This document shows positions 1-64,000 of a DNA stretch of 64,000 nt, one piece after another. The notes under the pieces were generated by a model. It was not told where the DNA came from, made no database searches, and was given only the letters and a program-made list of their open reading frames with translations. Origin of the DNA: Trueperaceae bacterium (GTDB lineage Bacteria; Deinococcota; Deinococci; Deinococcales; Trueperaceae); the NCBI GenBank assembly GCA_965213705.1, contig OZ243913.1, positions 384,001-448,000 on the forward strand. The letters run 5' to 3'. A program made the translations under genes and the position numbers. The stretch's first letter is position 1. The number at the start of each line of letters is the position of its first letter.

Positions 1-1028
1 GCCTCGGCGCGGTGGTCGGCGGCGCGGTAGAGCTTGACCTTGTCGCCCGCGGCTTTCACAGGACGCAGGTCTTTCTCCAAGCGCCCCTCGTTCGGCAAGA
101 TGACGGCGTTGGCGAGCGAGAGCACGCTGGCAACCGAGCGGTAGTTGAGTTCTAAGCGGTACACGGCAGCGTCCGGGTAATCCTTTTGAAAGTCTAAAAT
201 ATTGCGCACGTCCGCGCCGCGGAACGAATATATCGACTGGTCGGGGTCACCGACGACCATCAGGTTGCCGTACTTGCTGGCGAGCTGCTGCGTGAGCCGG
301 TACTGCACCTGGTTCGTGTCCTGGTACTCGTCCACGTGAACGAAGACCGCGCGCTGCTGCACCTTGTCGAGGGTGTCGGGGTGCGTGTCGAACAGCTCCA
401 CCGTGCGGCCCAAAATGTCGTTGAAGTCGACCGCGTTGGCGCGACGCAGGCGCATCTCGTAGCGCCGGTACGCCTCGACGAGCAGGTCGATGGGCAGACC
501 CGCGACCATGCCGCCCCAGAGCCGTTCGCCCTCGGCGTCCAAGGTTTCGGGCGTCCACAGGTTCGACTTGGCCCGGTCGATGAGGGCGCGGAGCACTCGA
601 GGGTTGGCGTCGTCGAGACCGCTCACCGTTTTCAAGATGTCTTTGAGCACGTCCAACTGGTCGTTGTCGTCGTAAATGCCGAAACCGCTTTTGAGGTCGA
701 TAAGTTCGCCGTAGGCGCGCAAAACGCGCAAACAGGCCGAGTGAAAGGTGCTCACCCACAGCTCTTTGCCCCTGTGGCCGATTAAAGTTTCGACCCGCTC
801 TTTCATCTCGCCCGCAGCCTTGTTGGTAAAGGTCACGGCGAGGATTTGCTGCGGGTAGACGCCGTACTCCTGCATCAGGTAGGCGATGCGGTGAACGACG
901 GTGCGCGTCTTGCCCGAGCCCGCGCCCGCAATCACCAGGGCCGGGCCGTCGTAGTGCTGCACGGCGGCGGCTTGCGCTTCGTTCAGGGGTGCCAGTAGAG
1001 GGTGGTCGCTTACGGTTGAGTCACTCAC
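1..1028 (-). CDS. uvrD: UvrD/PcrA superfamily-1 DNA helicase, 5' part (runs off the window)
   Basis: Manual translation from GTG 1028 gives MSDSTVSDHPLLAPLNEAQAAAVQHYDGPALVIAGAGSGKTR, with Walker A, AVTFTNKAA, VDEYQDTN, VGDPDQSIYSFRG and LELNYRS motifs. -10 TATAGT lies 6 nt upstream. Confidence 0.95.
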   Translation of the reverse strand, partial: MSDSTVSDHPLLAPLNEAQAAAVQHYDGPALVIAGAGSGKTRTVVHRIAYLMQEYGVYPQQILAVTFTNKAAGEMKERVETLIGHRGKELWVSTFHSACLRVLRAYGELIDLKSGFGIYDDNDQLDVLKDILKTVSGLDDANPRVLRALIDRAKSNLWTPETLDAEGERLWGGMVAGLPIDLLVEAYRRYEMRLRRANAVDFNDILGRTVELFDTHPDTLDKVQQRAVFVHVDEYQDTNQVQYRLTQQLASKYGNLMVVGDPDQSIYSFRGADVRNILDFQKDYPDAAVYRLELNYRSVASVLSLANAVILPNEGRLEKDLRPVKAAGDKVKLYRAADHRAE

Positions 1029-1124
1029 AGGGAAACTATAACGCCTCGAGCGCCCTCCGACCGGCTGACGGTAGACTTGCAGCCATCTCAGCCGGAGCCT
1101 TGCGAAAGCGGCTACACTGAACGC

Positions 1125-1487
1125 ATGACTCGGGCGCACATCATTCAAACGCTCAGCAAGCACTTAGGCGAACTGCAAACACGGTTCGGCATTCAAAAGC
1201 TTTCCCTGTTTGGTTCGGTGGCGAGAAACGAGGCCGAACACGGCAGCGACGTAGACCTCGTCGCCGACTACGGCGCTGCTCCGACCTTTCGGCAATATAC
1301 GGATGCGTTGCTATACTTGGAAGACTTGTTGGGTTGCAAGGTGGACTTGATAACCCGTGACAGCTTGAAAAGTGAACTCATACCCGCCGTTGGGCAAGAC
1401 CTTTTGACCATCCAAAATGCCGCGAAACGCACTTCTGTTTCTGAAAGACATGCGCGTTGCCGCTTAAAAATTACCTACCAAGTGTAA
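1125..1487 (+). CDS. MNT-family minimal nucleotidyltransferase (antitoxin of HEPN-MNT type), C-terminus apparently extended by stop-codon loss
   Basis: LFGSVARNEAEHGSDVDL (GSx10DxD) and LGCKVDL motifs. ATG 1125 has TACACT 6 nt upstream. Confidence 0.85.
   Translation: MTRAHIIQTLSKHLGELQTRFGIQKLSLFGSVARNEAEHGSDVDLVADYGAAPTFRQYTDALLYLEDLLGCKVDLITRDSLKSELIPAVGQDLLTIQNAAKRTSVSERHARCRLKITYQV
1417..1467 (+). pseudogene. 5' remnant of a HEPN/DUF86 toxin gene
   Basis: ATG 1417 reads MPRNALLFLKDMRVAA*. It overlaps the MNT end and resembles DUF86 N-termini (MxRDxxLYLxDxxxA). Confidence 0.55.
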
Positions 1488-1534
1488 AAGAAATTGTAAG
1501 CAGTGGATGCGTTTTACCCAAGTAGGAGGAAGCT

Positions 1535-60807: not shown

Positions 60808-62082
60808 ATGACCGAAATCGAAACCATACACGCCGTCGAGCTACTGGACTCGCGCGGCAACCCCACCGTGGGGGCCACCGTTCGACTTGTGAGCGGGGTC
60901 GAAGGAAGCGCGGCGGTGCCCTCGGGCGCGTCGACCGGCGCGCACGAGGCGGTCGAACTGCGCGATGGGGGAGAGCGCTACGGCGGTAAGGGCGTAATGC
61001 AAGCGGTCAAAAACGTCAACGAGGAAATCGCCGCCGAACTTCAAGGTTTCGACGCCGCCGACCAGACGGGTTTAGACCGGGCGATGTTGGACCTAGACGG
61101 CACGCCCAACAAGGCCAAGCTGGGCGCAAACGCAATGCTCGCCGTGTCCTTAGCGGCGGCGCGGGCGGCAGCCGACACCTATCAACTGCCGCTTTACCGC
61201 TACTTGGGCGGTGTCAACGCCAAAACCTTGCCCGTGCCGATGATGAACGTTATCAACGGCGGCAAACACGCCGACAACAGCGTCGACATGCAGGAGTTCA
61301 TGTTAGCCCCGGTCGGGTTCGAGCGTTTCAGTGAGGCGTTGCGGGCCGGGGTTGAAACGTTTCACGCGCTCAAAAAAGTGCTCTCAGGTCGCGGTTACAA
61401 CACCAACGTCGGCGACGAAGGCGGTTTTGCGCCGGACTTGAAGAGCAACCAGGAAGCTTTAGAGGTTATTTTAGAAGCCATCGAAAAAGCCGGCTACACG
61501 CCCGGCGAGCATATCTATATCGGCCTCGACCCGGCCTCGACCGAGTTTCATAAGGACGGCCACTACCATCTCGAGGCCGAGGCCAAGGTTTTGAGCCCCG
61601 ACGAGATGATTGCCTACTGGCAAAACTGGGTCGAAACTTACCCGATTATTTCCATCGAGGACGGGCTGGCCGAAGACGATTGGGCGAGTTGGGCGAAGCT
61701 CACCAGTATCCTTGGAGACAAGTGTCAACTCGTCGGCGACGACCTGTTCGTCACCAACGTGGAACGCTTGCAGCGGGGCTTGGACGAGCGCGTGGGCAAC
61801 GCCATCCTCGTCAAGGTGAACCAAATCGGCACGCTGACCGAGGCGTTGGACGCCATCGAACTCGCTACGGCGAACGGCTACCGCAGCATGATAAGCCACC
61901 GCAGCGGCGAGACCGAGGACGCCTTTATCGCCGACCTAGCCGTGGCGGTGAACGCGCCGCAGATTAAAACCGGCTCGGCAAGCCGTAGCGATAGACTGGC
62001 GAAGTACAACCGCCTGCTCCGCATCGAGAGCGAGTTGGGCTCGGCGGCGCGCTTTTTGGGCCGGAAGGCGTTTAATCAGTGA
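60808..62082 (+). CDS. eno: Enolase
   Basis: [31 protein letters not shown] and SHRSGETED motifs. Confidence 0.98.
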
Positions 62083-63509
62083 AGGTGCCGCGCCGCACCA
62101 AAATCGTCGCTACGCTCGGCCCCGCCACCAGCGACGCCGCGACCATCGTCAAACTTATGGAGGCCGGGGTCAATGTGTTCCGGCTCAACTTTTCGCACGG
62201 CACCAAAGACATGCACAAAAGCAACATCGAACTCATCCGCAAAGAAAGTGAGCGCTTGGGAAGGCCGGTCGGGGTGCTGCAAGACCTGCAAGGCCCCAAA
62301 ATCCGTACGGCGACGTTCGAAAAGGGCAAGGTCGAACTCAAAGAGGGCGACGTGTTCGTCCTCACCTGCGACGACGACACGCCGGGCGACAAAAGCCGCG
62401 TCGGTGTGACCTACAAAAACCTCTACAACGACGTCAAGGGCGGTGACGCGCTGCTGCTCGACGACGGGCGTCTGGCGCTGGAGGTCACGGCCGTCAAGGG
62501 TCAAAGCATCGAAACACGGGTCGTGTTGGGCGGGGTGCTGTCGAACAACAAGGGCATCAACATTCCGGGGGCCGACCTGAGCATTCCGGCCCTGACCGAC
62601 AAGGACGTCGAGGACCTGCTCTACGGCGCGGAACTCGACGTCGACTGGGTAGCGATGAGCTTTGTGCGCAGCCGCGACGACCTGCTGTTGGCGCGGCACT
62701 ACTTAGCGCGGGCGGGCTCGAGGGCCAAACTCATGGCGAAGATAGAAAAACCCAGCGCGGTCAGCCGCTTCGACGAGATTTTGCGAGAGGTCGACGGCGT
62801 GATGGTGGCGCGCGGCGACTTAGGCGTCGAGATGCCGCCCGAAAAAGTGCCGCTCATCCAGAAAAGCCTTATCCGCGCTTCTGTCGAGGCGGGCAAGCCG
62901 GTCATCACCGCCACGCAGATGTTGGAGAGCATGATAAACAGTCCCACGCCGACCCGCGCCGAGGCTTCGGACGTTGCCAACGCGATTTACGACGGCACCG
63001 ACGCAGTGATGCTCTCGGCCGAGACCGCTGTCGGCAAGTACCCGGTCGAGGCCGTGCGGATGATGGACCGCATCGCGCGCAGCGTCGAGAGCGACGAGCG
63101 CTACCAACGCGACATGCGCGACCACTACCCCGCCCCCGACGCGACCACCGCCGACGCCGTGTCTTTGGGCGCTTGCCAGATGGCCTACAACCTGTCGGCC
63201 GACGTGATCGTGACGTTTACCTCGAGCGGCAACACCGCCCTGCGCGTCTCGCGCAACCGCCCGCCCTCGCCGATTTTGGCGATTACTCCGAACGAGCGCG
63301 CCCACCGGCAGATGAGCGTGGTGTGGGGCGTGGTGCCCACCATGAGCACCGAAATTCACAGTACCGACGAAATGGTCGAGGTCGCCGGCAAGGCCATCAA
63401 AGAAACGCACCTGGCCGACCCCGGCGCACGCTACGTCATCACCGCGGGCGTACCCTTCGGGATGCGCGGCACGACGAACCTCATCCGGGTGGAGCGGCTG
63501 CGGGAATAG
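62079..63509 (+). CDS. pyk: Pyruvate kinase
   Basis: [32 protein letters not shown] and DAVMLS motifs. Confidence 0.98.
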
Positions 63510-63631
63510 TTAGAGTCCGCAGTCGGCTTTGGAAGCCGAAAGGGTGCAAGCTCGTAAGGTTTGCAACTTCCCCGAAGATAGACGGGTTTTCAAGCTGTCG
63601 AGGCTGGTACTCAGCTCGAGCCCACCGAACG

Positions 63632-64000
63632 CTACTCGTAGGACTCAACGGTTACACCCGTCGCCTTGTCAAACACGTGGCAGCTCGAGAAGTAGAACCT
63701 CAGCCGCTCCGGTAGCACTCGGTCAGGGTGTACAACGGCGGCGTGAAACGGCGCATCTCCGACCCGGCCGCTCAGCAGCGTGACGGGTTTGGTCGGCAGG
63801 TCGAGGCGTTCGGTCACGGTCGCTTCAACGCTGAACTCAGGACCGGGCTCGAGGCTCAAGTCTTCGGGCCGCACGCCCACAAGTTTGCCGCTGAGTCCCC
63901 TGCCGAGCGCGCCACCGACAAGTTCGCCGTCCAGCACGTTCAGCGCCGGGGTGAGCGGCTCGGGGTTTAGAAAGTTGGCGACGAACAAATTCCTGGGCAG
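63632..64000 (-). CDS. ABC transporter ATP-binding protein (MalK-like), 3' part only
   Basis: PRNLFVANFL, GVRPEDL (TOBE domain) and HVFD..TG. The start lies beyond the window. Confidence 0.75.
   Translation of the reverse strand: MPRNLFVANFLNPEPLTPALNVLDGELVGGALGRGLSGKLVGVRPEDLSLEPGPEFSVEATVTERLDLPTKPVTLLSGRVGDAPFHAAVVHPDRVLPERLRFYFSSCHVFDKATGVTVESYE

Follow-up and report, generated by a model that had tools for sequence, protein, structure and literature searches.

CTCGAG as an abundant DNA word of the highly iterated palindrome type in Trueperaceae and other families of the Deinococcales

The stretch of DNA analysed here, 64,000 nucleotides long and referred to below as the window, belongs to the genome of a Trueperaceae bacterium (G000, a single contig of 4.25 Mb; the window spans G000:C1:384001-448000). 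It carries dnaA and dnaN, as well as 133 dispersed copies of the palindrome CTCGAG located between positions 596 and 63853. A preliminary description of the window had proposed that CTCGAG behaves there as a highly iterated palindrome (HIP), and the underlying observation of an excess is confirmed. The hand counts given for the first three 10-kb bins (28, 13, and 27) are exact, and the motif remains frequent to the end of the window, with 16, 25, and 16 copies in the later bins and 8 in the final 4 kb. Markov models of order 1, 2, and 4 predict 22, 36, and 90 copies, respectively, and CTCGAG is the commonest hexamer of the window. It was correctly described as present in all frames and between genes, since 73 sites are found in the Leu-Glu frame, 14 in xCT-CGA-G, 26 in xxC-TCG-AG, and 20 are intergenic. 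All 11 sites listed previously as intergenic are also intergenic in our own gene calls (3,704 genes in G000, 81% coding, with some genes missed), and the site at 1822-1827, where a HAD hydrolase gene begins (1818-2489, plus strand), does utilize the rare arginine codon CGA in the xCT-CGA-Gxx frame.

An IS5-family element of the window (27962-28823, minus strand; transposase at 27973-28785, assigned with Pfam) contains no CTCGAG, as described. The low-GC patch pointed out previously, at 1420-1800, holds no sites either, although this absence carries no weight because 380 bp would hold less than one site by chance. The dnaA gene (57780-59141, plus strand) includes one site, at 59082, and its nearest relative among the scanned contigs is found in an uncultured Deinococcales genome (67%), the sole Deinococcales locus in that scan. 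The gene is followed by the likely oriC (59142-59481), with many TTATCCACA-like DnaA boxes, as judged by what we take to be the DnaA-box consensus. No cluster of CTCGAG was found in the 340-bp spacer between dnaA and dnaN, which holds a single site at 59305, between two inverted boxes.

In the whole genome, CTCGAG is present in 8,868 copies, one per 479 bp or 2,088 per Mb, with observed-to-expected ratios (O/E) of 5.87, 3.69, 2.40, and 1.47 at Markov orders 1-4, and its z-score is the highest among all hexamers at orders 2, 3, and 4. The second-ranked palindromic hexamer has an O/E of 1.67, compared to 3.69 for CTCGAG. The density along the chromosome is even, with 75-150 sites in each 50-kb bin. 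The extension to GCTCGAGC, noted previously, is seen in 36 of the 133 sites of the window, and this word is the commonest octamer of G000 (2,879 copies; O/E of 8.43 at order 2). However, it is not the true unit, as its O/E drops to 0.97 at the highest Markov order, making it a product of two flank preferences. The preferred flank also varies: it is G in G000 and C in the Thermus-like genomes, whereas the low-GC genomes of another family (f5, see below) show hardly any preference. The unit is the hexamer CTCGAG, with flanks specific to each lineage. Repeated elements of at least 600 bp in G000 contain 7 copies of CTCGAG in 30.9 kb, compared to 62 for CTCGAC and GTCGAG taken together. The poverty of insertion sequences (IS) agrees with the proposal that the word marks long-resident DNA, but one phage of Meiothermus and one of Thermus, which match or exceed their hosts, do not.

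Comparison of the three reading frames with synonymous shuffles reveals that CTCGAG overrides codon choice. The genome has 5,118 coding sites in the Leu-Glu frame, 888 in xCT-CGA-G, and 1,096 in xxC-TCG-AG, whereas five shuffles yield 1,941-2,038, 46-59, and 267-315, respectively. Thus, while the Leu-Glu frame comprises 72% of the coding sites, the other two exceed expectation 17-fold and 3.8-fold. Between genes the O/E is 4.85, and it is 4.92 within spacers of 20-400 bp. Confinement to the Leu-Glu frame, or loss of the enrichment under control for dicodon usage and TCGA frequency, had been named as grounds for abandoning the proposal; the enrichment survives both the shuffles and the intergenic test. 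Arginine is encoded by CGA in 71% of 1,244 xCT-Arg-G contexts, compared to 5-9% in five other contexts, and serine by TCG in 69% of 1,590 C-Ser-AG contexts, compared to 28% elsewhere. Near matches are depleted, with the one-step Leu-Glu neighbours CTCGAA, CTGGAG, and CTTGAG at 0.18, 0.42, and 0.55 of expectation (CTAGAG, at 0.95, is not depleted) and the two- and three-step neighbours less so (0.61-1.83). A role as promoter or terminator was rejected, the density rising merely mildly by the gene ends, to 2.5-3.5 per kb from about 2.

Existing sites are retained far better than their controls in a genome of the same genus (G001), as compared over 514 orthologous genes from 820 kb, and the orthologue alignment called for in the preliminary description thus bears out conservation. 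Among the pairs in which both genomes keep CTC-Glu, 524 share GAG, 6 share GAA, and 15 differ. The silent loss at CTC-Glu amounts to 1.4%, compared to 20.4% in 4,105 other xxC-Glu pairs, being about 14-fold lower, whereas gain is 56% compared to 31% in control pairs, with few cases. CTC is lost in 1.5% of cases before GAG and in 6-15% before six other codons starting with G. In a first, smaller comparison (267 genes), the arginine codon CGA was retained in 39 of 42 cases within the motif and in 64 of 189 elsewhere. A ratchet acting by gain only would, by our estimate, saturate this pair of genomes and leave well under one shared GAA; the pair, with six, is not saturated, and the effect therefore lies mainly in protecting sites that are already there. 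Both selection of a strength of about 3, estimated from the odds ratio, and protective repair fit the low loss.

The sites also avoid one another within about 250 bp. Their pair correlation increases from 0.62 at 6-15 bp through 0.84, 0.92, and 0.95 to 0.97 at 120-240 bp, compared to 0.89-1.58 in six control sets, with the strongest avoidance below 30 bp, and the coefficient of variation of the gaps is 0.94, compared to 1.02-1.29 in the controls. The fraction of Leu-Glu pairs spelled as the motif rises with the distance from the nearest other site, and the mutual avoidance is repeated in G001, Meiothermus, and pieces of f5 genomes. Replacement by a nearby site is also seen: of 306 private sites, 69 have a private site of the other genome within 150 bp, with 50.5 expected.

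The excess spans several families of the Deinococcales, excluding the Deinococcus-like genus. The survey covered 161 genomes of the order, and the ratios given below were obtained by dividing the CTCGAG count by the average for CTCGAC and GTCGAG; from family structure, gene content, and in part general knowledge, we take family f1 to be the Trueperaceae, genus g27 to be Thermus-like, and genus g25 to be Deinococcus-like, while genus g30 is identified as Meiothermus by the source label of an identical protein. Family f5 (12 genomes) is the densest, with 4.3-6.5 sites per kb and a ratio of 9-54. Meiothermus (13 genomes) has 1.4-3.1 per kb and a ratio of 4.6-19, genera g44 and g46 (5 genomes) have 2.7-3.4 per kb and a ratio of 4-6, and the ratio in family f3 (15 genomes) is 1.1-6.3. 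Among the 46 Trueperaceae genomes, including G000, 18 have ratios of 1.8-19 and 28 of 0.7-1.3. In the Deinococcus-like genus (43 genomes), the word is depleted (0.02-0.45), the opposite of the sister families. The Thermus-like genomes (25) contain 0.6-1.1 per kb, about equal to the reversed control; CTCGAC is present there in 5-63 copies per strand, and therefore TCGA survives mostly inside CTCGAG. Indeed, TCGA is nearly absent from these genomes save as CTCGAG, usually with C in front.

In pieces of 20-40 kb, CTCGAG is the top hexamer in all four f5 genomes sampled (O/E of 11.7-15.8), as well as in Meiothermus, and five f5 pieces have 5.9-6.4 sites per kb over 45-60% GC. The plasmid pMESIL01 of Allomeiothermus silvanus (A. 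silvanus) carries 113 sites in 50 kb (24.7 expected), the Meiothermus phage MMP17 has 87 (21.9 expected), and the Thermus phage Lalka27b (positions 1-50000, L374) has 119 in 50 kb (27.3 expected). The density in Lalka27b is 2.4 per kb, compared to 0.6-1.1 in Thermus-like chromosomes, and CTCGAC and GTCGAG together have just 4 copies. Being present in all frames and between genes, conserved, and lineage-wide, the word does show HIP-like behaviour in a lineage of the Deinococcota, as proposed.

A candidate for the proposed orphan methyltransferase without a nuclease is also found. Outside the window, at G000:C1:1135936-1137615 on the minus strand, an orphan N6-adenine methylase (P0001; 559 residues, motif NPPF, PF02384/PF07669/PF22837) is encoded convergently with dnaG at a distance of 11 bp; tsaB-like and tsaE genes are located nearby, and the neighbourhood includes no nuclease. 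Family searches of G000 returned neither an XhoI-family nuclease (PF04555) nor a match to the partner family described below, nor an m5C methylase; the XhoI-family model did detect matches in 5 of the 161 genomes. A type II restriction-modification system for CTCGAG in G000 was rejected, there being no cognate nuclease beside P0001. Other methylases of G000 look like parts of type I, IIG, III, or GATC systems, several of them in stretches of lower GC content. Searches with P0001 against the PDB and phage sequences gave weak matches only. Relatives are found in 22 of the 45 other Trueperaceae genomes and in 10 of 13 Meiothermus, in none of the f3, f5, and Thermus-like genomes, and, as one distant copy, in the Deinococcus-like genus. 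They are often syntenic, and in a quick tree the Meiothermus copies form one well-supported clade, with the copies of low-ratio genomes on long branches.

Gaps in the distribution of the P0001 type are filled by a second methylase family, which we take to resemble M.PaeR7I and which in one genome (G024) precedes a frameshifted XhoI-family nuclease. The two families follow an either/or pattern and are almost never found together. All 18 CTCGAG-rich Trueperaceae genomes (ratio of at least 1.8) carry a methylase of these families, 12 of the P0001 type only, 5 of the PaeR7I type only, and 1 of both, compared to 9 carriers among the 28 low-ratio genomes. Across the full set of 26 Meiothermus genomes, the P0001 type is present in 19 and the PaeR7I type in 5, with neither in the remaining 2 (81% and 92% complete); the PaeR7I-like query, run on 10 of the 19, gave no strong match. 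In G162, counted among the five rich Trueperaceae genomes of the PaeR7I type, the resident P0001-type gene is split at one locus (L205, G162:C4:631405-641512) by the insertion of an integrase element, which carries an IS together with a PaeR7I-like methylase, amounting to a replacement in place. A third family, close to M.TaqI (E-value 1.7e-126), is present in all 25 Thermus-like genomes and in G125 and G030. In f3, the only two genomes that carry a TaqI-like or PaeR7I-like gene also have the top two ratios. Adenine methylation of TCGA, as by M.TaqI, would cover the same A of CTCGAG. In the six TaqI-like loci of g27 and g47 that were read, a nuclease-sized gene stands behind the methylase in two and none does in four. 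In Thermus-like genomes, all six loci read (L361-L363, L365-L367) have the gene in the same place, ahead of gyrB.

None of these families gave a strong match in the densest genomes. In the 12 genomes of f5, genes of the P0001 and TaqI types were not found, the PaeR7I-like query gave no strong match (best E-value 3.5e-24), and searches of five of them with three Pfam families found no shared methylase, including beta-class or m5C enzymes. In g44, an Eco57I-domain gene is missing in 2 of 3 genomes. One universal methylase for the order was consequently rejected, as the carrier families differ and these searches turned up none common to f5 or present in g44; a shared m5C methylase with Vsr was also rejected, as G000 has no m5C methylase and the m5C genes of f5 are not orthologous (about 26-36% identity, long stretches). 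The methylase is likely accessory and not the cause of the excess, because no methylase common to f5 turned up in these searches and because A. silvanus is rich in the word while no CTCGAG methylation of this organism (listed as M. silvanus) appears in the portion of the single-molecule real-time (SMRT) data consulted (PMC4752239). In this respect, the causal role suggested for a methylase in the preliminary description is not supported.

P0001 quite probably methylates CTCGAG itself. Active orphan m6A methylases of this site are listed, in the tables S3 and S4 consulted, for M. ruber, M. chliarophilus, and Marinithermus hydrothermalis (SMRT; PMC4752239). In metagenome loci beyond the order, a conserved nuclease-like gene directly follows the P0001-type methylase in 21 of 22 cases (31 loci were returned, 9 short or weak ones being left out), and these loci are not clearly rich in CTCGAG. 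An hhalign comparison links the partner family to the XhoI family (probability 90.8, E-value 1.2e-6), as does an Atlas cluster with 13% XhoI. Within the order, three of the 161 genomes have the partner gene, G151 with an intact copy and G008 and G092 with remnants. Because outside the order the P0001 type adjoins a nuclease distantly related to XhoI, it appears to derive from a restriction system whose nuclease was mostly lost. Members of this nuclease family have about 250 residues, are PD-(D/E)XK-like and distant from XhoI, with no Pfam family in those scanned, and are found in many bacteria, as well as on plasmids, paired with Eco57IB-like methylases (L323-L346, L286-L289, L408). In f3 (L317-L320), XhoI-family nucleases are paired with beta-class (SPPY) methylases, which are convergent in the loci read and not PaeR7I-like.

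Most other palindromes are avoided in G000, with an O/E of 0.12 for GGCGCC and 0.04 for GAGCTC; the strong avoidance extends to CCATGG, TGGCCA, GCATGC, and GGGCCC (0.03-0.12 for the six hexamers at order 2). GAGCTC is nearly missing from most f5 genomes (3-25 copies in 10 of 12). GATC is depleted tenfold in G000 (O/E of 0.10), as well as in G001, and a low-GC island of G000 (C1:4058495-4061818; L010, L113) encodes a Dam-like methylase, a beta-class methylase, and a MutH/Sau3AI-like nuclease, together a likely GATC restriction system. Other genes of the window encode the S-layer protein SlpA (11130-13934), a baeRF-family ribosome hibernation-like factor (37316-38641), and a 986-residue protein with G8, CEMIP-like beta-helix, and PA14 domains (43511-46471), all three on the minus strand.

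The facts that need to be explained are a force acting at the level of DNA, protection of existing sites, returns that fall within a few hundred bases, and methylases which, although retained and swapped, are dispensable in some lineages. In the reading that we prefer, with a probability of roughly 0.45, CTCGAG would be a HIP-type word, present at about two copies per kb, which a putative host protein reads as an entry site for recombination or repair; this function is suggested by analogy with the data on HIP1 and transformation. The force would be selection for a function with a benefit that levels off across a few hundred bases. The methylase beside dnaG would add an accessory mark and a shield by methylating the adenine of CTCGAG. 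Such enzymes may have been recruited from restriction systems, with nucleases lost afterwards, and then kept and swapped since an XhoI-type nuclease would be lethal to a genome with thousands of sites, since methylated sites mark self DNA, or both. The idea that this lineage has its own HIP-type system is upheld as regards HIP-like behaviour and a conserved orphan methylase, whereas the methylase as a cause is not supported and a gain-only repair ratchet fits poorly.

Several observations weigh against this reading. Methyl-directed repair would likewise predict the low silent loss and the spacing, and therefore selection is not proven. At the sites, Leu-Glu is no better conserved as amino acids than elsewhere (0.82 in both cases), and in the first comparison CTC-GAC dicodons were retained in 135 of 159 cases, close to the 270 of 307 for CTC-GAG. 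The Deinococcus-like genus, which we assume to be naturally competent, lacks the word, and nine low-ratio genomes retain a diverged P0001-type gene. The five PaeR7I substitutes in Meiothermus probably represent one event because they are syntenic; moreover, kin genomes are not independent, and the ratio cut-off of 1.75 was picked after inspection of the data. The target of P0001 is one that we only infer, and its C-terminal Pfam domain is named after M.Eco57I, whose recognition site differs. Finally, G151 retains an intact partner nuclease.

A bolder proposal, which we consider rather doubtful, is that of a second, independent HIP system in the Deinococcota, in which a putative reader would take CTCGAG as a self mark for uptake and recombination, its methylation would be important enough for three unrelated methylases of restriction systems (Eco57IB-like, PaeR7I-like, and TaqI-like) to have been tamed in turn to write the same m6A, and Thermus-like genomes, with their TCGA nearly confined to CTCGAG, would keep a relic.

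A neutral ratchet is a rather unlikely explanation. According to the model of Elhai (PMC4390886, section 3.4), hemimethylated sites would direct mismatch repair, so that new CTCGAG sites are fixed and old ones protected until saturation, the word being otherwise functionless. Saturation, protection, and depletion of near matches are what such a ratchet predicts; one-step neighbours are more depleted than two- or three-step ones, MutS and MutL are encoded in G000, and the presence of a methylase tracks enrichment in the Trueperaceae, as it does in the two top-ratio f3 genomes. All 12 f5 genomes, however, reach their density with no strong match to any of the three methylase types, the plasmid of A. 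silvanus is enriched although, in the SMRT data seen, no CTCGAG methylation was detected in that organism, and a family search of G000 found no XhoI-like nickase. The MutL of G000 also carries what we take to be the endonuclease motif, which counts against the ratchet.

Less likely still, CTCGAG could be where a nucleoid or chromosome-organising protein binds, with the spacing reflecting its footprint and methylation being incidental or tuning. Such a site would fit the avoidance being strongest below 30 bp, the even chromosomal density, and the steady density of the f5 pieces across GC contents, and the same role was proposed for HIP1 by Xu et al. (PMC5861425). On the other hand, no candidate protein emerged, the repeated recruitment of methylases stays unexplained unless they act as a shield, and no periodicity was found at 8-150 kb (top normalised power of 7.9 among 502 frequencies, compared to 6.1-7.8 in controls, by a method different from that of Xu). 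Neither long-range periodicity nor a cluster at oriC was found to back the role in chromosome organisation suggested in the preliminary description. An origin as a by-product of codon, dicodon, or TCGA preference, or as an assembly artefact, is hardly tenable: the share of the Leu-Glu frame, a TCGA O/E of 1.19, the modest order-4 value, and ratios near 1 in many high-GC Trueperaceae genomes speak for it, but the synonymous shuffles, the intergenic test, and the use of CGA in motif contexts refute it, and the same pattern recurs in G001, in other families, and in named replicons.

What HIP1 does has been a question for some 30 years, asked mainly of cyanobacteria, and CTCGAG offers an independent replicate in a second phylum. 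Contrasts are naturally available here, since one genus is devoid of the word, some lineages have it but show no methylase, and others have swapped their methylases, and cultured Meiothermus and Thermus make experimental tests feasible. The methylase swaps are a clear case of the domestication of restriction methylases. If methylated sites raise transformation as HIP1 does, better delivery of DNA into these thermophiles may be possible.

Of the systems known, CTCGAG works like HIP but is not HIP1. HIP1 (GCGATCGC) and the alternate HIPs (GGCGCC, GCsGC, and rCCGGy; PMC4390886, PMC5861425) are likewise dispersed palindromes, top over-represented words, found in all frames and between genes, and conserved between genomes; they are linked to orphan methylases, with methylase-less exceptions, as CTCGAG probably is too. 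The density of CTCGAG (2,088 per Mb, and 4,300-6,500 in f5) reaches that of the alternate HIPs, 1,000-2,000 per Mb (Elhai, PMC4390886). The phylum and the word differ, however, CTCGAG being a hexamer with lineage-specific flanks, and HIP1 sensu stricto (core CGATCG) was rejected for G000, which has 4 copies of it and few GATC. The O/E is also lower here (at order 2, 3.69 for the hexamer and 8.43 for GCTCGAGC; 11.7-15.8 in f5 pieces) than the cut-off of 16 which Xu set for octamers. Periodic spacing at 10-90 kb is a HIP mark in that work, whereas the spectrum of CTCGAG, obtained by another method, is no stronger than the controls. Whereas the model of Elhai has G-meC, adenine methylases of three families, the likely writers of m6A at CTCGAG, replace one another here.

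The closest known enzymes with respect to site and order are the orphan m6A CTCGAG methylases M.Mru1279II, M.Mch9957IV, and M.Mhy14884I, with 94-99.5% of sites methylated and no cognate nuclease listed in the parts covered (PMC4752239). In those parts, Blow 2016 mentions neither a genome-wide excess of CTCGAG nor non-orthologous swapping. An orphan CTCGAG methylase of Nocardia in the same source shares the hexamer, but the motif clusters there at dnaA; the entries for the Nocardia enzymes give C as the modified base (m5C for one of them) and list a V. gene with each, whereas G000 has no m5C methylase. GATC as the target of Dam clusters at oriC, unlike CTCGAG with its single site in the origin of G000. 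The XhoI/PaeR7I and TaqI restriction systems are the source of two of the three methylase families, and the partner nuclease of the P0001 type is a distant relative of XhoI; the difference is that the nuclease is missing in G000 and most carriers, and that CTCGAG is hoarded, not avoided. DNA uptake sequences (DUS/USS) and Chi are, as CTCGAG, over-represented, found in all frames, and evenly spread, with a possible role in DNA entry or recombination, although they are 8-10-mers and not palindromic. HIP1, in turn, raises transformation, an effect that depends on methylation (10.1101/2024.09.10.611283), and co-varies with DNA-transfer proteins (PMC13756078). A search of mostly open-access text, with HIP supplementary tables outside its coverage, returned no report of a CTCGAG excess in the Deinococcota, which is apparently an unpublished variant of the HIP theme, with a new methylase story.

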